From: Escherichia phage vB_EcoP_PAS59
Reading direction: 5' to 3' (one strand)
DNA length: 64,000 nt
Sequence record: OQ921332.1
In this document: positions 3,387 through 41,045 of the stretch, one piece after another
Position numbering within the stretch: the first letter of the stretch is position 1
Layout of the letters: each line of letters starts with the position of its first letter
Translations under genes and position numbers: made by a program
Notes under the pieces: model-generated
Databases searched by the model: none
What the model was told of the DNA's origin: nothing
Seen by the model: the letters and a program-made list of their open reading frames with translations, nothing else

Positions 3387-4198
3387 TTCTTCCTATATCG
3401 GTTGAACATGGCGAGCAATAATAACCATTGCAAGCTATGCCAGATAAAACGATGTAAGGCGCTCTAAAATATCAGAGGAAACCGCTTTATAATCCCTTAC
3501 TGGAAACGACACCACTGATAAATGAAGTTATTGAGTACATGCAAGGCTTAAGCTAATCGCCTACGGTTAAAGGGTAGCGGCGGCGGTGCTAGTAAAGTGC
3601 TACAATAATAGACGTTTATCGGGGTAGTCAAGTCCGACGAATTAACGCTCAATAGCGAGCGGCGGGAGGGGGTTAAAGAGTAGCAAATTGCTATTTAACA
3701 ATAAGGTTTAAGCGTGAGTATTTACTAAGTGAGTGTTTTGATACACATCAATAGCGATGTGAGTACATAAACATGTAGTGTAGTAAATCGTGAGAGAGAT
3801 AATCAAACGCCAAAGTATCAGGCGGTCAATGACTCTTTACCATATGCTTTCCCTTAGTAGGCGATAAGCAGGTTTAGAGAGTTGATATAAAAGGGTATCA
3901 CGAAGCGAAAGCAAAGTAGATAGTAATGCCATCGGCTAGAAATTTAGCTAATTAGAGATGGACGCGCTTGCCTTATTGTGATGATTGATCATCGCTGGCA
4001 AATCGGCTTTGTTTATAGCGATTAGTTGAATCCACCAGATGAAACATCACGGCAAGTTAGGCGGCAAGGTTAACTCCTGATAAGACCGCCTGATTTACCA
4101 CTGGTTACTAATGGTTAGTGATTAGTGTTAAGTCATAGTGACTTGAATAGCCCATAGAGGGCGGCGCATAGTGCGTTTATAATTGAAAGGTGAATATC

Positions 4199-5101
4199 AT
4201 GGCTAAAGTTTTTAATCTGGTTAACGAATCCGGCTTTAATGCACTGGCAAACAACATTCGTAGCAATAACGCGGCGATCAAACAAGATGTTTCTAACTTC
4301 CTGTTAGGGCATTTGCAGCACTTCCGCACCAACGGTAAGAAACTGGATGTATTGCAGGCGGCGGTTGATTTCTTGTTAACTGAACGTTATCGTGACTTAG
4401 ATGTGATTGCGGTTGCCATCTCTTTCTTAACTCCTATCAAATATAACACTGACGGGGCGAACGGTAAGAAGAAATGGATTAATCTGGAAGGTGAAGCGAA
4501 AGCTAAAGAAGATGCTAAACCGGAACAGGTTAAATCTAAAATGGAACAAAACCGCGCCCGCTGGTCGAATTCCTTTGAACGCTTTGCTAAAGGTGAAGAC
4601 GTGCAGGTTGATAACCCAGCATTCTACAAAGGTTGCAATGACAACGTTCCGGTAGCAAACCAGATCAACCAGAAGGTTAACGAAAACTTTAATCAGGATA
4701 TTTATGCACTGGTTGACCGTCTGGCTGCAATCCGTATTGAAGCGGCATTACTAGCAGATGAACGCAATGGCGCATCTTCTGATAACACTATCGCATTGAG
4801 TGAAGAAGTCGGCAAAGTTAAGAAAACTTTCGATTCACTCCTTAAGAAAGTGACCGCATCAACTGTATCTATCAGCGATGACTACCTGATTAATGCCTCG
4901 ACTAAAGAGCTTGAATCTCTGGACTCATACGCTGATGAAATGGAAAAAGCGATCAACGAAATGACTGAAAAATTGTCTAACCTTCGTGGTCGCATCTCAA
5001 ATGCTTCAACTATCAAAGCGAACGAGAAAGCTGCGCAGGAAGAAGAAGAAGTGTTGCGCAAAGCTGCCGAAATCATGGCAGCACGCCAACAAGCTGCATA
5101 A
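4199..5101 (+). CDS. early protein of unknown function (300 aa, acidic coiled-coil C-terminus)
   Basis: ORF track 4190..5101; ATG 4199; first long gene after the promoter and leader region. Confidence 0.6.
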   Translation: MAKVFNLVNESGFNALANNIRSNNAAIKQDVSNFLLGHLQHFRTNGKKLDVLQAAVDFLLTERYRDLDVIAVAISFLTPIKYNTDGANGKKKWINLEGEAKAKEDAKPEQVKSKMEQNRARWSNSFERFAKGEDVQVDNPAFYKGCNDNVPVANQINQKVNENFNQDIYALVDRLAAIRIEAALLADERNGASSDNTIALSEEVGKVKKTFDSLLKKVTASTVSISDDYLINASTKELESLDSYADEMEKAINEMTEKLSNLRGRISNASTIKANEKAAQEEEEVLRKAAEIMAARQQAA

Positions 5102-7278: not shown

Positions 7279-7584
7279 ATGACTTTAGAGGTTTATAGAT
7301 TCCTTCTCGTACTCACCGTAACGATTTCTGTTCTAGGATTTATTGCGTTAAGTAATAAGTCAGCAAGCTGGAAGCGTCGTTATGAGTTCCTTCTTAAGCA
7401 AGAGGAAGTCTTTAATGCTGATGTTCGTTCCAAACTGCTCAAGATGCAGGAGCAAATTGAAGCACGTAATGATCGTTTGGCTTCTTTGGGTTGGGAGATT
7501 AAACGTATTCAAGATCTCAACAAGCAACTCGCTGAAGAAATTAAACGCCAGAATGAGGAAACAGAGGATGCGCTCAAAGGTTAA
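7279..7584 (+). CDS. membrane-anchored coiled-coil protein
   Basis: ORF track; N-terminal TM helix then charged helical region. Confidence 0.5.
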   Translation: MTLEVYRFLLVLTVTISVLGFIALSNKSASWKRRYEFLLKQEEVFNADVRSKLLKMQEQIEARNDRLASLGWEIKRIQDLNKQLAEEIKRQNEETEDALKG

Positions 7585-7744
7585 GTTTACCACTGGTAAC
7601 ACTGTTCGCCTTGTTGGCGGTACTCAAACAGGTGTTATTCGTCGGAGAACAACGATTGATGGTGTTCTCTGTTATCTTGTTCAGTGGAATGGTGAGTCTT
7701 CTCCTTCCTTCGAACGTCGTACTGATTTGGTGCTAGTCAAATGA
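7553..7744 (+). CDS. hypothetical small protein
   Basis: C-terminal part of ORF track 7382..7744; internal ATG 7553. Confidence 0.3.
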   Translation: MRKQRMRSKVKFTTGNTVRLVGGTQTGVIRRRTTIDGVLCYLVQWNGESSPSFERRTDLVLVK

Positions 7745-7974
7745 AGATAAACTTCGAAATCATCCCAAAGGTTAAAGAAAAGCAGCTAATCTTCAGTGAT
7801 CTCTCTAACGGGGATATTTTTAAATTTAAGAATGTTGATGCTGATACTTATCTTTGGATGAAAATTGACAAACGGTCTGCCATGAAGTTAAGTGACACTT
7901 CTGACATCACTGATGTATTTATCCATTCTGAAGTCTCTAAGTACAAATACAAAATTATCATTGAGGGTAAGTGA
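7741..7974 (+). CDS. small protein, GDxF paralog family
   Basis: ORF track; SNGDIFKF motif shared with 7974, 8735, 11249, 12306, 13948. Confidence 0.5.
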   Translation: MKINFEIIPKVKEKQLIFSDLSNGDIFKFKNVDADTYLWMKIDKRSAMKLSDTSDITDVFIHSEVSKYKYKIIIEGK

Positions 7975-8204
7975 TGAAAATTAATCTCTTCTCTGTAGTT
8001 GTTACTAAAAAGCTCAGTGAGTTACGTCCGGGCGATGTATTCCGTTTACCGACTAACTCTGAAAATGTCTACCTAAAGACAGACACTAGACTTAACGATA
8101 TGCATCGTGTGGTTGGTCTTAGTCAGGGGACACTGTTCCAATTACAGGAAGACCATGAAGTTATCCCTGTACCTGATGTTCAAGTAACTCATATCAATGG
8201 TTAA
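7974..8204 (+). CDS. small protein, GDxF paralog family
   Basis: ORF track 7971..8204; PGDVFR ... IPVP shared with 13948..14199. Confidence 0.5.
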   Translation: MKINLFSVVVTKKLSELRPGDVFRLPTNSENVYLKTDTRLNDMHRVVGLSQGTLFQLQEDHEVIPVPDVQVTHING

Positions 8205-8206
8205 GT

Positions 8207-8340
8207 AACATCGACTTATAGCCCTTGTGTTTATCAGAGGGCTATGTGAGGGTGTTCCTCAATTAACTATAATCTCAACGCCATATGGCTCACCGCTAGG
8301 GCGAGACTTGTCTCAAACATCCGGTGATAGACTAAAACCT
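8207..8340 (+). repeat. conserved intergenic element, copy 1 (perfect 8-bp hairpin 8218-8245 plus ~90 nt of conserved sequence)
   Basis: near-identical to 14201-14340, including ATAGCCCT-loop-AGGGCTATGTGAG and CTCAAACATCCG. Confidence 0.55.
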
Positions 8341-8510
8341 GTTAATTTTCGAACAGCTTTCCGATATGTAGGGGTATGTATCGGTTTGGGATAGAGAACA
8401 ATCTAGGGGTAGAGAGTTCTCGACAGTTAGTACAAGCGGAAGCCTTAACGTGTAGGGCTTCCCTTTATATTAACTGGCAAACCTGCCTCCACCAACAAAG
8501 AGAGAACGAT

Positions 8511-8651
8511 ATGAAGAAGACAACCAAACGTATGAACCGTCCTGAACGTATGGATGCAGTAGCAAATGGTGCTCTGAAGATTGAGTCTGCCATGCTTCGT
8601 CTGACAACTAACATCCGTAAGCGTCAAGGTGATTGGTTCTACGGTGGATAA
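8511..8651 (+). CDS. hypothetical small basic protein
   Basis: internal ATG of ORF track 8376..8651 behind AGAGAGAA. Confidence 0.3.
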   Translation: MKKTTKRMNRPERMDAVANGALKIESAMLRLTTNIRKRQGDWFYGG

Positions 8652-8734
8652 TTAATAATGGGCTGCCCTTCGGGGTGGCCTTTGTTGTTTTAATTAAGGG
8701 ACAACTCTTAATTAAACTAACAAGAGAGGTTGAT

Positions 8735-8986
8735 ATGTTCAATCGTTTATTTGACCGTAAAGGTCGCACTGACATACTGATACCCTCTATCGGTGTGCCA
8801 GCTAAGTTCGGTGAGATACGTGCTGGTGATTTCTTCATGGAATCAGGTCGTCTTCATCTGAAGATTAATCTTGAACACGCTGTAGAAATCCTCAGTGATG
8901 ATAAGCCAATCATTGGCACTTCGGTGTACAGTGCAAACCATACTGTATTTGTTGTCAACGTCCAGATTGAGATTAAAAAGCCATGA
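8735..8986 (+). CDS. small protein, GDxF paralog family
   Basis: ORF track 8633..8986, start moved to ATG 8735 behind AGAGAGG; AGDFF motif. Confidence 0.45.
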   Translation: MFNRLFDRKGRTDILIPSIGVPAKFGEIRAGDFFMESGRLHLKINLEHAVEILSDDKPIIGTSVYSANHTVFVVNVQIEIKKP

Positions 8987-9291
8987 CAATTTCATCTTCA
9001 ACTCGCTGCAATCCTAATGTAGATATCCGTGCTCAAATGTCTAAGATGCCCGGTGTTACTCATTTAGAGTTCACCTACAGTCACTCGCGGTATGAACCGG
9101 GCTTTACTGTGGTAATAAAATCTCCGTGGTTAACAATGACATTGTTCTCGGATGAAGTTGAGAAGGCGGTGAATGGTATTAAGTCAGGCGGACTTAAACT
9201 TTTATCCACTGAACTGGCTGATGAGTTCATGCCTCTTATCCGTAAAGGTGTGGCTAAAATGAACAAAATGATGGAGGCTGCAAAGCAATGA
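8983..9291 (+). CDS. hypothetical protein
   Basis: ORF track; ATGA overlap. Confidence 0.45.
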   Translation: MTISSSTRCNPNVDIRAQMSKMPGVTHLEFTYSHSRYEPGFTVVIKSPWLTMTLFSDEVEKAVNGIKSGGLKLLSTELADEFMPLIRKGVAKMNKMMEAAKQ

Positions 9292-9542
9292 CAAACTTCC
9301 GAGCAGCAGTTATTACGAAAGTAATAGCAGTTGGTGATGTAATGATGCAAGTTCCTCTGAACACTCGTTACATTGCCATTGACCGAATGGGTTATGTGTG
9401 GGCTTGGAAGTGGAAGCCTACTTACAATGAACTGTTCGACGAATACCAGTGCGCTGGGCCTTACATGCCAACGTTGGTTGGTGTGTATGAAGACGGTCCT
9501 TGTCGTACTCCTCAGTTAATTGAACTACCGGCGTGTGCTTAG
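9288..9542 (+). CDS. hypothetical protein
   Basis: ORF track. Confidence 0.45.
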   Translation: MTNFRAAVITKVIAVGDVMMQVPLNTRYIAIDRMGYVWAWKWKPTYNELFDEYQCAGPYMPTLVGVYEDGPCRTPQLIELPACA

Positions 9543-9543
9543 T

Positions 9544-9708
9544 ATGATTAAATGGTTCAAGCGTCTTGTGCATCTGCATGATTGGGTAATCCTTGAAAAA
9601 TATACGCTGAAGATTACTGACGATCACGGTGGGACAAAGCACAAAGGTCTTCGCTATATTATGCAGTGTAAAGTGTGTGGTCATGTTACCAAGCGTGACA
9701 TGATCTAA
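9544..9708 (+). CDS. small zinc-ribbon-like protein (tandem paralog 1 of 3)
   Basis: MIKWFKRL...CKVCGH; internal ATG of ORF track 9520..9708. Confidence 0.45.
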   Translation: MIKWFKRLVHLHDWVILEKYTLKITDDHGGTKHKGLRYIMQCKVCGHVTKRDMI

Positions 9709-9717
9709 GGGATCATT

Positions 9718-9882
9718 ATGATTAAATGGTTCAAGCGTCTCTTTCATTTCCATGAGTGGGAAGATCTTTCTACTTATGAATTGACGATCACAAATAAACT
9801 TACTGACAGAGAGCGACAAGGGTTGCGTATCTACTCTCGCTGTAAAGTGTGTGGTCTGCACAAGAAAACAGATTTGATCTAA
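9718..9882 (+). CDS. small zinc-ribbon-like protein (tandem paralog 2 of 3)
   Basis: 54-aa ORF below the track cutoff; MIKWFKRL...CKVCGL. Confidence 0.4.
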   Translation: MIKWFKRLFHFHEWEDLSTYELTITNKLTDRERQGLRIYSRCKVCGLHKKTDLI

Positions 9883-9890
9883 GGGGTGTT

Positions 9891-10100
9891 ATGTTCTTTC
9901 GTAAGAAAAAGCCCGAAGATTCTGGATGTAAACATGAATGGGTGGTCACTGAAAACTTACATATCACTCACGCTAAAGACACTCCAGTAGAGAGAAAAGA
10001 ATCTCGTGTATCTCGCATCTGTAAACACTGTTTGAAAATAGAACAGCATAAAGTTCCCGGTCATATCGGTCATGATGTGGCCTTGCGTATTTTCAGTTAA
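9891..10100 (+). CDS. small zinc-ribbon-like protein (tandem paralog 3 of 3)
   Basis: internal ATG of ORF track 9849..10100; H.W ... ICKHC. Confidence 0.4.
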   Translation: MFFRKKKPEDSGCKHEWVVTENLHITHAKDTPVERKESRVSRICKHCLKIEQHKVPGHIGHDVALRIFS

Positions 10101-10109
10101 ACAAATCCA

Positions 10110-10185
10110 GCACCCTTAGCTCAATGGACAGAGCAGCGACCTTCTAAGTCGTTGGTTACAGGTTCGAATCCTGTAGGGTGCACCA
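10110..10185 (+). tRNA. tRNA-Arg (anticodon TCT)
   Basis: hand-folded cloverleaf: acceptor GCACCCT/AGGGTGC, D-arm GCTC..GAGC, anticodon loop CTTCTAA, T-arm ACAGG-TTCGAATC-CTGT, encoded CCA. Confidence 0.85.
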
Positions 10186-10203
10186 ATCAACGTAGGAGGG
10201 TTT

Positions 10204-10344
10204 ATGACCCCTGAGTTTAATGAGTGGTTCGATGATATCTTTACTTCTCCTTTGTTCAGCGAAGAAGAAAGAGAAGAACTTAAAACCTACCTATGGATGG
10301 CTTGGCGAGATAGCCGCCGTAAGGCGCTTCAGGAGGGATCATGA
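10204..10344 (+). CDS. small protein (46 aa), paralog of 11879..12010
   Basis: EWF...EELKTY.W.AWRDSRRK shared; below the track cutoff. Confidence 0.4.
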   Translation: MTPEFNEWFDDIFTSPLFSEEEREELKTYLWMAWRDSRRKALQEGS

Positions 10345-10667
10345 GCTGGGGTGGTGTAATTACCTTAACCTGTATCTTTATCGCCTGTGTAGCTCTTACA
10401 GGCTGTGTACAGCATCGTCCTGATGGGTGGTGTGCATTATCTGTAGAAGGTGTCTGTGTTTCCCGTTGGCATAGTGGGGAGAAGGTTCCTAGCGGTGAAA
10501 TTGATATGCGTTATGCTGGCGCTTCTTGTTCTAATGGCGGTGCTGTTGACGAGAAAGCTTATGCAAAACGTGACATGGAAACACAAGGTGATTGGTCACG
10601 ATACGACTTCATCTCCCGTGGTGTACAGTGTAGTGGCTCTGTGACAACAACAGGTAAGGAGTGGTGA
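10341..10667 (+). CDS. Cys-rich secreted protein or lipoprotein
   Basis: ORF track; signal peptide with LTGC lipobox-like site. Confidence 0.4.
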   Translation: MSWGGVITLTCIFIACVALTGCVQHRPDGWCALSVEGVCVSRWHSGEKVPSGEIDMRYAGASCSNGGAVDEKAYAKRDMETQGDWSRYDFISRGVQCSGSVTTTGKEW

Positions 10668-10668
10668 T

Positions 10669-10923
10669 ATGTCTAGTCATTATTCTGATACGAAAGCTTT
10701 ACTGGAAACAGCGGCTCAGACTTCATGCCAACAGCAAGTAAAAATGTTGTTGGTTGATATTCGTAATCTGCGTTGGCTTATCAAAGAAGGTCATATCGGA
10801 AACGCTGCCTATTACAACGTTAAAGATATCCTTCGCCGCCAGCACTTTCTTATCCACGGAAACGTGGTCACTCGCAACTATCAGTGGAATGGTCAATGGT
10901 TACAGCAGCGTATGTCCTCCTGA
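10669..10923 (+). CDS. hypothetical protein
   Basis: ORF track. Confidence 0.4.
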   Translation: MSSHYSDTKALLETAAQTSCQQQVKMLLVDIRNLRWLIKEGHIGNAAYYNVKDILRRQHFLIHGNVVTRNYQWNGQWLQQRMSS

Positions 10924-11150
10924 TTTATGTTATTGGTTGGTGGTTAGCAGCCATCGTAGTTAAGTGGTGCTTCAAAACCAATACATTCTATAACTTCTTC
11001 CACAACCCGTGGAGTGGTAAGCCTGATGAATATTCTATCTGGATAGTAATATTCTTCTGGCCTATTTTGTTATTATTCCTCTTACTCATCCCTTTCATGC
11101 TCCTGTTAGGGTGGGTGTTGGACAAGATGACAATCTTTATTATACATTGA
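10896..11150 (+). CDS. small membrane protein (paralog of 11622..11870)
   Basis: two hydrophobic helices; shared F.WPI motif; internal ATG of ORF track 10884..11150. Confidence 0.4.
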   Translation: MVTAAYVLLIYVIGWWLAAIVVKWCFKTNTFYNFFHNPWSGKPDEYSIWIVIFFWPILLLFLLLIPFMLLLGWVLDKMTIFIIH

Positions 11151-11248
11151 AAGAAAGGATTAATAAAACCCACTTCATCATGTATGGTCGTACTAGAAGT
11201 TATATCAAGTATGACTTTTGGAACTCTTACTACGGTTAGGATGTTATT

Positions 11249-11470
11249 ATGAAACTGAATTCTAAACAGTGCCTTAAAACTGTTGAACTATCCTCCCTCT
11301 CTAATGGGGATGTTTTTGGGCACGATAAACATTTCTGGATTAAAACAGATTTCTTAAATGACGGGTACATCACCTGCGTCAATCTTTGGAATGGTTCGGT
11401 AGATGGTTATCGCCCTAGTGCACAAGTGGTTCCTCAGCCTGATGCAAAGGTTGTAGGTTTAGTCTACTAA
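11249..11470 (+). CDS. small protein, GDxF paralog family
   Basis: ORF track; SNGDVFGHDKHFWIKTD. Confidence 0.45.
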   Translation: MKLNSKQCLKTVELSSLSNGDVFGHDKHFWIKTDFLNDGYITCVNLWNGSVDGYRPSAQVVPQPDAKVVGLVY

Positions 11471-11479
11471 GGAATTCAT

Positions 11480-11653
11480 ATGGCTTGCTATGGTGGTGGT
11501 GAAGTGTGTGACGATGATGACATGGAATCCAACGGAGAGTGCCCTGACTGTGGGTGTGAGACGTGGAATGGTGTGTCAGTATATCCTGCCTGTAGTTATT
11601 CACCAGTGATTTGTAAAACATGTGGAGATCAACCTTGTGATCAGTCCTGTTAG
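11480..11653 (+). CDS. small Cys-rich protein (57 aa)
   Basis: ATG behind AAGGA; CPDCGC and CKTCGDQPCDQSC clusters; below the track cutoff. Confidence 0.4.
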   Translation: MACYGGGEVCDDDDMESNGECPDCGCETWNGVSVYPACSYSPVICKTCGDQPCDQSC

Positions 11654-11870
11654 TGTGTTAATAGTCTACCTGATAGGTATTGTGTTAACCTCAGCTCTGA
11701 TAAAATTCCTTGATGTAAAAGGTAGTGTCGAGTTCAGAGGATGGGGTAACGAACCAAACCTATCAAAGATAGCAATTATAGTTTTTCTATGGCCCATTGT
11801 TGCTGTGATGTTTATATCCCTTTGCTTGTGGGCAGGGCTGTGGGGTTTCATTCTTCCTAAAAAGGAGTAG
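11622..11870 (+). CDS. small membrane protein (paralog of 10896..11150); start uncertain
   Basis: ORF track; F.WPI motif. Confidence 0.4.
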   Translation: MEINLVISPVSVLIVYLIGIVLTSALIKFLDVKGSVEFRGWGNEPNLSKIAIIVFLWPIVAVMFISLCLWAGLWGFILPKKE

Positions 11871-11878
11871 GGGTATTT

Positions 11879-12010
11879 ATGACTAAAGAATTTTTAGAGT
11901 GGTTTGGAAATACCTTCAAAGAATATCTATTCTCTCCAGAAGACTTTGAAGAGCTGAAAACCTACACTTGGTTGGCTTGGAGAGATAGCCGACGAAAAAT
12001 GAATAAGTAA
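11879..12010 (+). CDS. small protein (43 aa), paralog of 10204..10344
   Basis: ATG behind AAAGGAG; EWF...EELKTYTWLAWRDSRRK. Confidence 0.4.
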   Translation: MTKEFLEWFGNTFKEYLFSPEDFEELKTYTWLAWRDSRRKMNK

Positions 12011-12305
12011 TATCGTGAAGGACTCTTACGAGAGTCCTTTGAGATAGGACTTCAGATCTTCTATCAAACTAACTTTCACGTAACTAGCCCATAAGGGCGT
12101 TACCCTTCAATAACCCAGCCCACTAAGGGGGCGGGAGTTTAGTGCTGGAAAAGCATAACGCTTATCCTACAAAGGCAACCGATTGTTAGATCTTACATGC
12201 AATATTAATTAATAGGATATGGGAGGATTCGTCCCCTCCCCCTATTTATGAAAGCATTCTCCCGAGAGTTCTCTCATAAATTGGTCCATAACTAAAGGTG
12301 GTAAA

Positions 12306-12560
12306 ATGAAAGTTAACAAACCAGCCAGTAAGAACGCAATACCACTCAGCGCTCTGCGTCTTGGGGATTGCTTCATGTACCCTAACAGTGAAGATGGTGA
12401 TTTGTATATCTTACTGTCTACAGAGTTCTCCACTCGTTTGTGCATTAAGGGTGCGGACGAGCACAGACTTGTAGCCTGTCTTAACACAGGCCGAGCGACA
12501 GCTCCTCGTAAAGATGTTGCTGTTATTCCTATTAAAGCTGAAGCAACTATTAAGGAGTAA
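12306..12560 (+). CDS. small protein, GDxF paralog family
   Basis: ORF track; LRLGDCFMYP. Confidence 0.45.
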   Translation: MKVNKPASKNAIPLSALRLGDCFMYPNSEDGDLYILLSTEFSTRLCIKGADEHRLVACLNTGRATAPRKDVAVIPIKAEATIKE

Positions 12561-12563
12561 GCA

Positions 12564-12827
12564 ATGGCTCTGACCATTAACAAAACTCGTATTGCGGATA
12601 TTCCTCTAATGGTGGCAGGTGTTTCTATCGGTTCTTTCTTTACTTTGAAAGAAGATAAAGAACAAACCATTTACATGAAAGTGAACAAAAGCTCTAATGG
12701 TTGTGAATACCACCGAGCTGTGTCTGTGCAGAGTGGATACGTTCGTAATATGGCATCCAATATGCCAGTTGGTGTTGTGTTTGAATCAGCAACTCTGGAT
12801 TTAGTGGAGAAGATCAGTGAAACATAA
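12564..12827 (+). CDS. small protein (divergent GDxF-family member?)
   Basis: ORF track. Confidence 0.4.
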   Translation: MALTINKTRIADIPLMVAGVSIGSFFTLKEDKEQTIYMKVNKSSNGCEYHRAVSVQSGYVRNMASNMPVGVVFESATLDLVEKISET

Positions 12828-13074
12828 AGACCATCCAAAGTATGTATCGCTATTGGATGCAGCCCTTCTCTGCACGTACTGGCTCCTTATTGTTATTGGG
12901 GTTGTGCTAATGATATGTGGTGTCGTACAGTTCTTTATGTATCTGCAAAGCGTGTTAGATACCACATTAGCTAACACTATAATCCTTGCAATTCTCGGTG
13001 TTATTGCTTTCTGTGTGATTGTCTTCTTCGTTTGGTTATCTATGAACGACGACTCTACACACACCTTCTATTGA
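12817..13074 (+). CDS. small membrane protein
   Basis: ORF track; two hydrophobic helices. Confidence 0.35.
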   Translation: MKHKDHPKYVSLLDAALLCTYWLLIVIGVVLMICGVVQFFMYLQSVLDTTLANTIILAILGVIAFCVIVFFVWLSMNDDSTHTFY

Positions 13075-13273
13075 CAGGAGAAAATCAGTGAGAAAACGTG
13101 CCTACTCTGAAGAAGAAATGGTTAACTTGAAAGGCTTCGGTCAACGACAGCCTGACGGTTCAGTTATCTGGTACATTAACGGACAGAAAAAGGCAAGTAA
13201 ATAAGCCCTCTTCTCTCCTCCTTTTAACTACTATGACGCCTCTCTTTTCGGCGCTGTTTTGGAGCTTCAAAAA

Positions 13274-13687
13274 ATGGCTGGGAAATTCCCCAACGTAAGC
13301 AAGAAATTGGCTTACCTCACGTATAAAGAAAACATTGATCTTCTGGTCAAGCTTTATCCGGCTTCATTCAACAAGCAATTCCCTCTTCCTTTGGAGCTTA
13401 ACATCCATAAGGAAATAGCCCGTAAGACCGGTTGGTCAGCGGAGAAAACAAGCATGGTGCTCAACATCTGGACTACTCGTATGGAGTATGTGATGATGGC
13501 CTGTAGCACTGGTAAACGCTTCAAGCTGCACTCTGTAGCTATGAAGATTCGTAGCCCTATCGACCCTGAGCCGATGGCTGGGTTCAGTAGCCGTTTGAAA
13601 TCTTTCCGTGATCGTGGTCGTGTAGTGAAATTCAAGCATGACTTCTCTTACAAGTTTGGATACGAAGCGTTCCAATTTGTTGTTTAA
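13274..13687 (+). CDS. ProQ/FinO-domain RNA-binding protein (putative)
   Basis: internal ATG of ORF track 13259..13687; pattern YPASFNKQFPLPLELNIHKEIARKTGWSAEKTSMVLNIWTTRMEYV aligns with the E. coli ProQ N-terminal domain as recalled. Confidence 0.45.
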   Translation: MAGKFPNVSKKLAYLTYKENIDLLVKLYPASFNKQFPLPLELNIHKEIARKTGWSAEKTSMVLNIWTTRMEYVMMACSTGKRFKLHSVAMKIRSPIDPEPMAGFSSRLKSFRDRGRVVKFKHDFSYKFGYEAFQFVV

Positions 13688-13714
13688 TCTCTCTTTAAAA
13701 TAAGGTAATAAAAC

Positions 13715-13948
13715 ATGTCTAAAGTTAGCGCAATTGATGCCATCCGTCAGCCGTTCCAGTTCCAGTCTAAATCAACTCAGACCCACAGCGAACCTAAACA
13801 GATTCGTCTGGGCGGTACAGAGAAGACTGTATTTGATATTGCGAAAAACAAAAGCGTAACCATCGTCGAAGGCGGCGAACTGGTTAATGTTTCCCACCGT
13901 ATTCGCACTGGCAAGACTGCCAAAGATCGTGCTAAGAAAGGTTTGTAA
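13715..13948 (+). CDS. hypothetical small protein
   Basis: ORF track; translation-initiation region AAGGTAATAAAnATGTCTAAAGT repeated at 34410. Confidence 0.45.
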   Translation: MSKVSAIDAIRQPFQFQSKSTQTHSEPKQIRLGGTEKTVFDIAKNKSVTIVEGGELVNVSHRIRTGKTAKDRAKKGL

Positions 13949-14199
13949 TGCAAATTTCCAATAAAACACCTCCTGAGCCTACTGTTCAAGTAAAAGATAT
14001 GACACCGGGAGATGTGTTTCGTTCGGTTGAATATCCGGGGGAATTCTTTATCCGAACCCCTTCTGCCTCTGTTGATGGTGTCACTAAGCCGGTAACAGCA
14101 GTTCAGTTGAGCACAGGTCATCTCTTCCGTTTAGAGCTTGACATGGCAGCTATTCCTGTTCCGACAGCAATCCTCCGCTTCGACGGAGACACAGAGTAA
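13948..14199 (+). CDS. small protein, GDxF paralog family
   Basis: ORF track; PGDVFR ... IPVP. Confidence 0.5.
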   Translation: MQISNKTPPEPTVQVKDMTPGDVFRSVEYPGEFFIRTPSASVDGVTKPVTAVQLSTGHLFRLELDMAAIPVPTAILRFDGDTE

Positions 14200-14340: not shown

Positions 14341-14604
14341 AGAGCAGGTTATCCACAGATATTGGGTGATATCTATTTAATTGGCCTTAAAGCTTGGCTC
14401 TCTTAGGAGAGTCCTTTTTTAAGTTCAAAGAAGAGGTTGTATGGATAATAAGTTGAAAGCTAAATTCTTATTGGCAGCAATCTTTATTTGCTTAGCCACT
14501 GTAGGGTTTGTCAGGATGTACTCTTTTGCATCTTGTGAATTAAGCAAGAATGATAGAGGGTCTTACAACTGGCTAACCAATCAATGTGACAAACAGGAGA
14601 AGTT

Positions 14605-22246: not shown

Positions 22247-23494
22247 ATGACTACTCGTATCCGTGTTCTTCCGTATGGCCCGTCTGATTCTGTTAACGCT
22301 CTGGTATCTGCTATCAGTGATACTATCCGTGATGAACGTATCAACGCTAACATAATGGGTCTTCTTTCAGAGAACAGTCGCTGGCGTTCTCGTGAGGATG
22401 ATGTGGTTGTGAACTACGGGAACCGTCGCTATCCTGAATCCTTCTTTGGTTCTGCAACTGTCCTTAACCGTACCGCAGCCTTACATATGGCAGCGAACAA
22501 ACGTCGTGCTTTCAGCGTGATGGACCAAGCAGGTGTTAAAACTGTTGAGTATACAGATGTTCAAGAGATTGCTCAGGAGTGGTCAAACTCTGGCAACATT
22601 GTGTATGAACGTCATGAACTGACTGGTCACTCTGGTTCGGGTATCGTTGTTGTTGAGCCTCGTGATTCAATTGGTCAAGCTGAACTGTACACCAAAGGTA
22701 TTCAAGGTCCACGTCGTGAATGGCGTGTCCATGTGTTCAAAGGTGTTATCACCTATGTTCAGAAGAAGATTCGTCGTAACGGCTATCGTGAAGACCCTAA
22801 CTATCGTGAAGATGTTCGTAACCATCACACTGGTTGGGTTTACTCAAGTTCCTTCACAGACGCTCCAAATGATGCATCTCTGATCAACGCAGTGAAGGCC
22901 GTTGAATCGATGGGTCTGGATTTTGGTGCAGTTGATATCATTACCAAAGGCCGAGAAGCATGGGTACTGGAAGTTAACACAGCACCGGGCCTGACTGGTA
23001 CAACTCTGGATATCTACCGTCACAACATCCTTGAGTTTGTTAAAGCTCAAAATCCTCTCTATACTCCTCAGTATAAAGTGGGTTACCAGACTCCTGTTGA
23101 AGCTCCAATCGAAGACGGAGATGGAGAGTTGGTAGATGACAGCGAAAGCGCTAATGATGAAAACTTTGCACTGGAAGGTCAGGTAGCACAGCCGGTTGAG
23201 TTGGTAGATGTAGTTCCTGAAGAGATGCAACTGGAAGGTCAGATGAATACTCAAACTATTCGTAATGCACCTACTGGTTACACTTTATCTCGTGGTTATT
23301 GGATTGCAGATATCCGTCATGTCCATAACAACCTGCAACCGAATGCAATGTCTTCCAATGTCATTTTGTTCTGTGATGGTCGTAACTTCTACCGTAGTGG
23401 CTGGAACGTTCCGGTCAATCCAGTCCAGATTCATAACCCTCGCAAGTTAGAATCTGTCAATGTTGAAGGTAGCGAAGTAGCAGTAACTCTGTAA
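22247..23494 (+). CDS. ATP-grasp ligase (RimK-like) with acidic C-terminal extension
   Basis: ORF track; ERHELTGHSGSGIVVVEP, EWRVHVFKG, DFGAVDII...WVLEVNTAPG. Confidence 0.55.
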   Translation: MTTRIRVLPYGPSDSVNALVSAISDTIRDERINANIMGLLSENSRWRSREDDVVVNYGNRRYPESFFGSATVLNRTAALHMAANKRRAFSVMDQAGVKTVEYTDVQEIAQEWSNSGNIVYERHELTGHSGSGIVVVEPRDSIGQAELYTKGIQGPRREWRVHVFKGVITYVQKKIRRNGYREDPNYREDVRNHHTGWVYSSSFTDAPNDASLINAVKAVESMGLDFGAVDIITKGREAWVLEVNTAPGLTGTTLDIYRHNILEFVKAQNPLYTPQYKVGYQTPVEAPIEDGDGELVDDSESANDENFALEGQVAQPVELVDVVPEEMQLEGQMNTQTIRNAPTGYTLSRGYWIADIRHVHNNLQPNAMSSNVILFCDGRNFYRSGWNVPVNPVQIHNPRKLESVNVEGSEVAVTL

Positions 23495-23520
23495 TTAAAT
23501 TAAACAAAAAGGAATTTGTA

Positions 23521-23763
23521 ATGTTGTCTATCGAAGATTTGATCAGCCGTGGAATGACCGAAGAAAAAGAGCCTCTGATTGTAGGCTCTCGTAAAGCTAT
23601 CAACCAACTCTGTGAAGAGTTCGGTATCACAAATAAGAGAATGATTGGTAATCAGTTCTCTGCAATCATCACCTTCCTCAAACGAGGTGATAAATATTCA
23701 ATGGAAAGTGCTGAGCGTATCATCGCAATTGCACAAGCAGATAAGGGAGTAACAAGTCTGTGA
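23521..23763 (+). CDS. hypothetical small protein
   Basis: ORF track. Confidence 0.4.
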   Translation: MLSIEDLISRGMTEEKEPLIVGSRKAINQLCEEFGITNKRMIGNQFSAIITFLKRGDKYSMESAERIIAIAQADKGVTSL

Positions 23764-40569: not shown

Positions 40570-41045
40570 ACCACCTGTTGTTTATAAAGATAGTCTCAGA
40601 GATCAATACAGTAAGATGTTAAAAGATCAAGCTGAATCTAACTTACTTTATCAGCGAATAGTAGAAGAATCTAGATTAAAAGGAATGATGGAGTGGTAAC
40701 TTATGTTCTTTACTTCTTAGCTTTCTTAGGAATAATCTTTTTATCTATTATTATTGAATTTGGTTTAAGTAAGTTAGTTAACTATTTAGGTAGTAAGTAA
40801 TTAATATTCTTTTAAATAGAGAATCAAAGTCCCTAGGAGTCCCCACAACCTAAATCAAGGATTCCTTAATTCTCTATTTTTATCTCGCAGGTGTCTCCTG
40901 CCCTTCGGTACTTGCAAGGGTTACAATGATTGCCCAATATACAAGCCTGCAATAGCTTTACTAGCTATACCATATATACATTACTACTTGTCATTATCTA
41001 CTACCAAAAAGGTTATAGTATAATAGAACCTTATCTGTATAGGTG

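Follow-up and report, generated by a model that had tools for sequence, protein, structure and literature searches.

Unknown host-takeover and anti-defense functions reside mainly in the early regions of phage genomes. Here we describe a family of small proteins encoded seven times in what appears to be the early region of Escherichia phage vB_EcoP_PAS59 (OQ921332.1), of which one stretch of 64,000 nucleotides, hereafter "the window," was analyzed. The phage is a relative of phiEco32; in phiEco32 and SU10, experiments have placed the corresponding gene block in the early class, which depends on host sigma70, and the block has been described as more variable than any other part of the genome (PMC8948821, PMC4281155, PMC9965538). 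One small protein of phiEco32, gp79, is the product of a middle gene that binds RNA polymerase and has an N-terminal alpha-helix (alpha1) in its structure (PMC12276001). The subfamily to which these phages belong, the Gordonclarkvirinae, is reported to be highly resistant to the defense systems tested against it, and three of its members, Bas86-88, are now available on E. coli K-12 whose O-antigen has been restored (PMC11990801).

Between 7 and 15 kb, the DNA of the window is 90-95% identical to that of E. coli podophages of the Gordonclarkvirinae, genus Suseptimavirus (SU7, ECBP2, EK010 and Bas86-88), and its genes here are colinear with those of the right-hand block in phiEco32. In the homolog search, two of the proteins matched proteins of vB_EcoP_PAS59 at 100% identity. 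The original prediction, made on this DNA from its letters, had called the small proteins encoded here "early," which holds as far as synteny with the phiEco32/SU10 early class reaches; by that synteny, the family genes of the window would be expressed early.

Seven paralogs in the window

On the evidence of profile comparisons, seven open reading frames (ORFs) in this region are paralogs that belong to a single family of phage proteins, widespread but absent from curated databases. They are listed below and are referred to by their start positions; all are present on the plus strand and all are initiated by ATG.

7741-7974, plus strand: member 1, 77 amino acids (aa); N-terminal half canonical (LIFSDLSNGDIFKF...YLWMKI), C-terminal half diverged
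7974-8204, plus strand: member 2, 76 aa; the most canonical of the seven copies
8735-8986, plus strand: member 3, 83 aa; divergent
11249-11470, plus strand: member 4, 73 aa; inside a cassette at 11240-12007
12306-12560, plus strand: member 5, 84 aa; long loop of 20 residues between strands 2 and 3
12564-12827, plus strand: member 6, 87 aa; GSFF replaces GDxF
13948-14199, plus strand: member 7, 83 aa; more acidic than any other copy (isoelectric point, pI, 4.8)

The family was first suspected from a short shared motif, and that motif is indeed enriched: [LMIV]xxGD[VIFC]F occurs six times among the 785 stop-to-stop ORFs of all six frames, each time in one of the proposed ORFs, against an expectation of 0.25 +/- 0.55 (maximum 3 in 200) in shuffles. 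The rival explanation, that ORFs without common ancestry or coding function share the motif by chance, could draw on the weak pairwise identity of the window paralogs (16-34%, with phmmer E-values from 1e-5 to >1, some of them above 0.1). Because pairwise similarity was weak, we used profiles. Hidden Markov models (HMMs) were built with orthologs added from the homolog search, omitting each subfamily in turn, and the omitted ORF was found at E 2.4e-15 (7974), 4e-10 (13948), 2.7e-9 (11249), 9.5e-7 (7741), 5.7e-6 (12564) and 9e-5 (12306). The top non-member ORF scored E 0.03-0.3 and was nearly always 8735. The sequence of 8735 is marginal against these models (E 0.03-0.19), yet it was always the best match outside the training set, and comparison of its ortholog profile with a broad profile of the family gave a probability of 95% (E 4e-8), the 60 aligned columns spanning the whole domain.

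Profile-profile alignment gave the same picture. Each orthogroup was compared by hhalign with a profile of 118 metagenomic relatives that included no window sequence, and all seven ORFs matched, with probabilities of 95.7-99.5%. Five of them (7974, 11249, 13948, 12306 and 12564) reached 97-99.5% over 64-79 columns; individually, 11249 scored 99.1%, 13948 99.1% over 71 columns, 12306 99.0% over 79 columns and 12564 97.3% over 64 columns. For 8735 the probability was 95.7% over 56 columns, and for 7741 it was 98.7% but over 36 columns only, corresponding to the N-terminal half. An HMM of the 118 metagenomic members gave matches at E 9.5e-20 to 2.6e-10, and PHROG profiles cross-matched between the seven ORFs along their full length. 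Relatedness therefore extends past the motif to near domain length (in part only for 7741), and 12564, which the original prediction had included merely as a possible member, is a clear one (leave-one-out E 5.7e-6; hhalign 97.3%). The profile evidence, the PHROG cross-matches and the motif enrichment, together with ribosome-binding sites, conserved orthologs whose ratio of nonsynonymous to synonymous substitution (dN/dS) is far below 1, and 1,399 related clusters, all count against a chance motif, and we regard that explanation as excluded. The proposed C-terminal signature fared less evenly: (I/V)PV or a variant of it was found in 7974, 13948, 12306 (as IPI) and 11249 (as VPQP) and was absent from 7741, 8735 and 12564.

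The two least typical copies need separate mention. In 7741, only the N-terminal 36-40 residues could be aligned to the family profile, and the C-terminal half is connected to it by a transitive link only: 7741 is 39% identical to phiEco32 gp98 over 76 aa, and gp98 in turn matches gp109 (E 6e-9), which aligns with the profile along its whole length. An AlphaFold2 model of 7741 built on its own nine orthologs alone was of low confidence (predicted local distance difference test, pLDDT, 50). In 8735, a 12-residue N-terminal extension precedes the domain, and the conserved glycine turn has given way to an insertion between strands 3 and 4. Its ATG lies 5 nt downstream of a GAGAGG Shine-Dalgarno sequence and shortly 3' of a terminator-like hairpin (8660-8681); a longer, TTG-initiated ORF from 8633 was discarded since it would cross that hairpin, while the ATG at 8735 has the GAGAGG.

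Apart from the extension of 8735, the seven proteins (73-87 aa) are stand-alone and of domain length. A Shine-Dalgarno-like sequence is recognizable ahead of six of them, the exception being 7741, whose stop codon overlaps the ATG of 7974 by one base. A second adjacent pair is formed by 12306 and 12564, in that order, and 13948 is the final gene ahead of a terminator-like hairpin at 14396-14413. The copies range in pI from 4.8 to 8.8 and in net charge from -4.4 to +1.6. Searches of the 64-kb window with family profiles revealed no eighth member.

Sequence anatomy and predicted fold

The family consensus can be written as MKI..(~10)..v.F.dL..GDVF..(6-13)..YMKt..(5-34)..naV.L.tG....f....eVIPV.a.l.i. 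An N-terminal MKI is followed by a hydrophobic v.F.dL, an invariant G with D/E, V and F behind it, an aromatic-M-K/R triplet, V.L..G, and finally V-I-P-V with an alternating hydrophobic tail. The invariant residues are G20, F23, the aromatic at 33, M34, K/R35, V47, L49, G52, V63 and P65. Nearly all conserved columns are glycine, proline or hydrophobic; to these are added D/E21 (84%) and K/R35 (96%), which lie on neighboring strands. Spacings between the conserved elements are tight except for the loop between strands 2 and 3, which is 5-34 residues long. Most members are acidic, with a median pI of 5.2, 64% of members below 6 and 10% above 8.

Each protein is predicted to be a single five-stranded SH3-like small beta-barrel, and the predicted structure does contain five antiparallel strands in a small barrel. 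The conserved residues would correspond to the barrel core and its tight turns. Foldseek comparison with the PDB gave nothing significant (best E 0.04). No match to Pfam FeoA, the model for FeoA/DtxR SH3-like domains, reached the gathering score, and for KOW/Tudor-like domains (NusG/Spt5 KOW, CarD_TRCF) there was neither a Pfam match nor the KOW glycine-lysine signature.

Extent of the family

An exhaustive HMMER search with a 25-sequence profile against 1.84 billion representative proteins (E <= 0.001) found 1,399 family clusters. With so many metagenomic clusters, with members in many unrelated lytic phages, and with paralogs that predate the split between Kuravirus and Suseptimavirus, the family is not "lineage-specific," as had been supposed. 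Among the matches listed, most are stand-alone proteins of 67-90 aa, and 126 of 144 new matches are at most 100 aa long. At least two domains are present in 16 of the best 150 matches, and two of the best 150 are long repeat proteins in which mainly the N-terminal half of the domain is reiterated. On one metagenomic contig (ERZ1749587 NODE_474, our locus L002), an 834-aa protein (237-2741) carries at least six repeats of the N-terminal half only (profile positions ~5-45), and two neighboring proteins (3441-4001 and 4015-4608) carry two half-repeats each; the N-terminal hairpin of the domain may be able to act as a repeat unit by itself. Tandem pairs of family members also occur in unrelated contigs, and one distant relative carries a helix-turn-helix fused at its C terminus.

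Sequence searches of Pfam, NCBIfam, PADLOC and the PDB with family members gave no match. In PHROGs the family is split over at least 10 clusters, all annotated "unknown function" (6570, 7832, 7431, 8365, 12612, 16423, 9955, 10911, 34455 and 22099), to which the seven ORFs belong; among 124 family sequences, 114 matched phrog_6570 and 112 matched phrog_7832. Foldseek against predicted viral structures returned uncharacterized proteins from phages of Escherichia, Serratia, Proteus, Morganella, Vibrio, Klebsiella, Erwinia, Dickeya, Yersinia, Pseudomonas and Xanthomonas. Other routes added little: a second, word-based homolog search with a broad alignment found only close relatives already known, a search of viral contigs with a subfamily alignment gave no confirmed relative, and an insensitive tblastn of two distant members against isolated phages led from one to a single Vibrio phage and from the other to nothing. 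What we describe is an undescribed sequence family with a well-known fold in a typical genomic setting, in which at least 10 unannotated PHROG clusters and ~1,400 metagenomic clusters are merged into one family with a predicted fold.

Copy number, exchange and selection

For the copy number we scanned the syntenic region of six Suseptimaviruses, along with the opening 30 kb of N4 and 50 kb of Vibrio phage 1.101.O. SU7 and Bas87 have five, HC-25922 six, ECBP2 and the window seven, TH34 eight, and phiEco32 nine. With 5-9 copies in Gordonclarkvirinae vs. 1-2 in the scanned parts of N4 and the Vibrio phage, the expansion that had been proposed is real. Five types (7974, 8735, 12306, 12564 and 13948) are found in all six Suseptimaviruses, and at least four other types come and go: a counterpart of 7741 is missing from SU7, Bas87 and HC-25922, and ECBP2, TH34 and HC-25922 carry an extra family member where the window has a non-coding gap (8205-8510). 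The cassette at 11240-12007 comprises four genes whose proteins are 67-93% identical to phiEco32 gp104-gp101, and neither 11249 nor any other gene of it has an ortholog in SU7, Bas87, ECBP2, TH34 or HC-25922. Since the cassette is phiEco32-like and lacking in the five other Suseptimaviruses, 11249 appears to have been gained by inter-genus exchange and not by local duplication. The remaining positional counterparts in phiEco32 are only 27-40% identical, vs. 41-93% for most neighboring genes.

The "diversifying selection" that had been invoked for these proteins finds no gene-wide support. Within the genus, purifying selection acts on every orthogroup: dN/dS of orthologs is 0.04-0.26, like that of neighboring early genes; the median is 0.18 for family orthogroups and 0.13 for 17 neighboring early genes (Mann-Whitney p = 0.81), with values of 0.04 for 12306, 0.13 for 7741, 0.14 for 8735, 0.22 for 12564 and 0.26 for 13948. 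(In this set the "orthologs" of 9544, at 50-54% identity, are probably paralog matches and are to be disregarded.) Synonymous divergence (dS) is higher in family genes than in the flanks (0.49 vs. 0.22, p = 0.001), which suggests that alleles have been swapped in from more distant phages. Judged from these comparisons, the paralogs are of old origin and mobile; each is maintained in its own right, and over long times they diverge fast.

Possible function

We tentatively propose, at somewhat less than even confidence, that the conserved barrel is a scaffold whose variable loops bind different cytoplasmic proteins, chiefly those of the host, early in infection. The invariant residues would build the barrel core and tight turns, and the loops—variable in sequence and, between strands 2 and 3, also in length—would provide paralog-specific binding surfaces. 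Each copy, made early, would have its own cytoplasmic target protein, bound stoichiometrically and most likely a housekeeping or defense factor of the host, so that the phage would carry a small repertoire of binders on one scaffold; some copies may act as dimers. We read the family in this way because, D/E21 and K/R35 aside, only hydrophobic, glycine and proline positions are conserved, while the strand 2-3 loop ranges over 5-34 residues. The acidic composition and the early-gene setting also speak for it. That the functions are distinct and maintained is suggested by the low dN/dS of each orthogroup (0.04-0.26) in the face of paralogs that share only about 17-35% identity; the variable copy number, the exchange of a cassette between genera and the raised dS point to accessory behavior; and the hint of dimers comes from the adjacent pairs (7741/7974, 12306/12564, the phiEco32 runs and those on unrelated contigs) and from fused tandems. 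The broad defense resistance reported for Gordonclarkvirinae (PMC11990801) is a weak contextual hint in the same direction. So is one gene neighborhood: on a 122-kb Joint Genome Institute (JGI) contig (sample 3300059473), a distant tandem family pair (positions 158-1017 of our locus L013) lies directly upstream of a gene with a Gad2 domain (PF26128, anti-Gabija).

Several points weigh against this proposal. The SH3-like barrel is a generic fold that is also used to bind RNA, DNA and small ligands. The burial of the conserved residues is read from the sequence pattern, the timing of expression is read from synteny, and the Gad2 neighborhood is a single case. A gene-wide signal of positive selection was not seen, and the presence of five types in all six Suseptimaviruses, all under purifying selection, fits a phage housekeeping role equally well. 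No study of the family turned up in our searches of the literature.

That housekeeping role could be played by adaptor or chaperone subunits of phage replication, transcription or nucleotide-metabolism proteins, the paralogs being specialized by partner. The presence of the five types in all six Suseptimaviruses and their low dN/dS would suit such subunits, as would the single gp21 that N4 keeps among its middle-region DNA-metabolism genes and the position of the Vibrio phage copies near rIIB and nucleotide-metabolism genes. We consider it unlikely, since the family is among the genes that diverge most between genera (27-40% vs. 41-93% identity) and several types have been gained or lost between close relatives, which is unusual for partners of conserved machinery. 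Somewhat less likely again are small nucleic-acid-binding barrels (like Sm, KOW, Tudor or cold-shock domains) that would act early in infection on transcription, RNA stability or translation. In structure, the best matches are indeed RNA- or DNA-associated (the uL2 C-domain, EF-P/eIF5A domain I, Spt5 KOW, PWWP and HspQ), one distant member is fused to a helix-turn-helix, and a ProQ/FinO-like gene (13274-13687) lies in the same operon region. Nucleic-acid binding is nevertheless disfavored because acidic members predominate (median pI 5.2, with only 10% above 8, and net charges in the window of -4.4 to +1.6); moreover, no conserved basic or aromatic surface patch exists besides K/R35, and Pfam scans of the members found no KOW, S1, CSD or Sm domain at E 0.01.

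Small-molecule sponges or sensors for immune signaling nucleotides or metabolites, like the anti-defense sponges of Tad or Acb2 type, would also be small, abundant, early and possibly oligomeric, and the tandem and fused forms, the pair beside a Gad2 homolog and the broad defense resistance reported for the phage group could be read in that way. We think this quite improbable: no conserved polar pocket is apparent, D/E21 and K/R35 being the only conserved charged positions, no similarity to solved sponges was seen by sequence or by fold, and a high diversity of paralogs would be needless for a few conserved ligands. The scaffold with variable loops could also be extended to lytic phages in general, as a 75-residue "binder scaffold" whose loops (above all a hypervariable one of 5-34 residues between strands 2 and 3) are diversified and whose cassettes are shuffled to neutralize many host proteins, defense systems included, with 5-9 binders in each Gordonclarkvirinae phage and with tandem or fused forms acting as bivalent binders; such a repertoire might contribute to the broad defense resistance reported for the subfamily. 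This is a speculative extension that we hold to be improbable as it stands.

What would follow differs between these readings. If the paralogs are target-specific binders, the family would yield several new phage-host interaction pairs and possibly a compact natural scaffold for binder engineering; if they serve the phage's own machinery, it would be an ordinary paralogous family. In either case, it is present in multiple copies in an abundant group of coliphages that bacteria find hard to resist and, because Bas86-88 are available, the paralogs are open to direct deletion and tagging.

Neighboring genes and other features

Among the genes around the family, annotation is limited to a phage lipoprotein family, DUF7247 and a match of borderline score to ProQ/FinO. 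The last of these, a 137-aa protein encoded at 13274-13687, scores 27.2 bits against Pfam ProQ/FinO, where the gathering score is 27; it is 96-99% conserved among relatives, with a dN/dS of 0.08, and its product may be a phage RNA-chaperone-like protein. Directly upstream of 7741, a 58-aa protein (VKFTTGNTVRLVGG...YLVQWNG...) is encoded at 7568-7744; its only Pfam match was sub-threshold (Mtf2_C, E 0.004) and it matched neither PHROGs nor the family profile, and it could be another small beta-rich domain.

Other small paralogs are also found here. Three adjacent genes (9544-9708, 9718-9882 and 9849-10100) encode zinc-ribbon-like proteins with the pattern H/CxH-W ... CxxC, of which 9544 and 9718 are 50% identical (E 9e-17) and 9849 is a weaker match (E 3e-3). 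Two proteins of 43-46 aa (10204-10344 and 11879-12010; EWF..F..LFS.E..EELKTY.W.AWRDSRRK) are 67% identical (E 8e-17), the second copy lying in the cassette. Two small hydrophobic paralogs, one resident (10896-11150) and one in the cassette (11622-11870), share 26% identity (E 8e-6), and their products are probably membrane proteins.

A tRNA-Arg gene (anticodon TCT) lies within the early region at 10110-10185, as it does in related phages, and was the only finding of an Rfam scan of the region. Two non-coding gaps of ~300 nt (8205-8510 and 12011-12305) contain stable hairpins at 8438-8462, 12020-12037 and 12221-12240, again with no Rfam match. No exact gp36-type promoter consensus was found between 7 and 15 kb, in a scan that overall did no better than chance; exact copies of the consensus (TAATGTATA) occur at 626, 33995 and 41046 on the plus strand and at 40975 and 51676 on the minus strand.

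Comparison with known systems

The nearest named relatives are the hypothetical proteins gp95, gp96, gp97, gp98, gp104, gp109, gp113, gp114 and gp115 of phiEco32, all of them family members (profile E 2.8e-18 to 1.6e-7). With its nine copies to the seven of the window, phiEco32 shares both the early gene block and the tandem arrangement (runs gp95-98 and gp113-115). The counterparts are gp98 for 7741, gp104 for 11249 (88%), gp97 for 12306, gp95 for 12564 (35%) and gp115 for 7974; phiEco32 offers no clear equivalent of 8735 or 13948. Farther afield, the uncharacterized 74-aa gp21 of N4, an unrelated phage (Schitoviridae), is a full-length member by HMM (E 3.3e-18) and by its structural match in BFVD (E 1.5e-4; template modeling score, TM, 0.78). 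No other copy lies within the first 30 kb of N4, where gp21 follows the RNAPII genes among middle-region genes, and Vibrio phage 1.101.O has two copies in its first 50 kb.

Solved SH3-like domains (the uL2 C-terminal domain, the FeoA/DtxR C-terminal domain, Tudor, KOW, EF-P domain I, the RNAP-interacting domain of CarD/Mfd, VapX and HspQ) resemble the family in fold only, at 5-23% sequence identity; since the resemblance is at the level of the fold alone, no function can be transferred from them. PHROGs keeps as separate unannotated families what cross-matches and profile-profile comparison here bring together as one superfamily.

The window also has its own homolog of gp79, the phiEco32 inhibitor of sigma70-RNA polymerase and activator of the gp36 holoenzyme, within the ORF at 23473-23760 (75% identity). 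A link between gp79 and the family was considered and rejected: the window homolog does not appear in the match lists of the family profile even at E up to 50, and there was no PDB profile match. The likeness is one of kind. In the same group of phages, gp79 is a small phage protein that binds a host protein and shuts off sigma70 transcription, an example of the type of mechanism that we propose for the seven paralogs.

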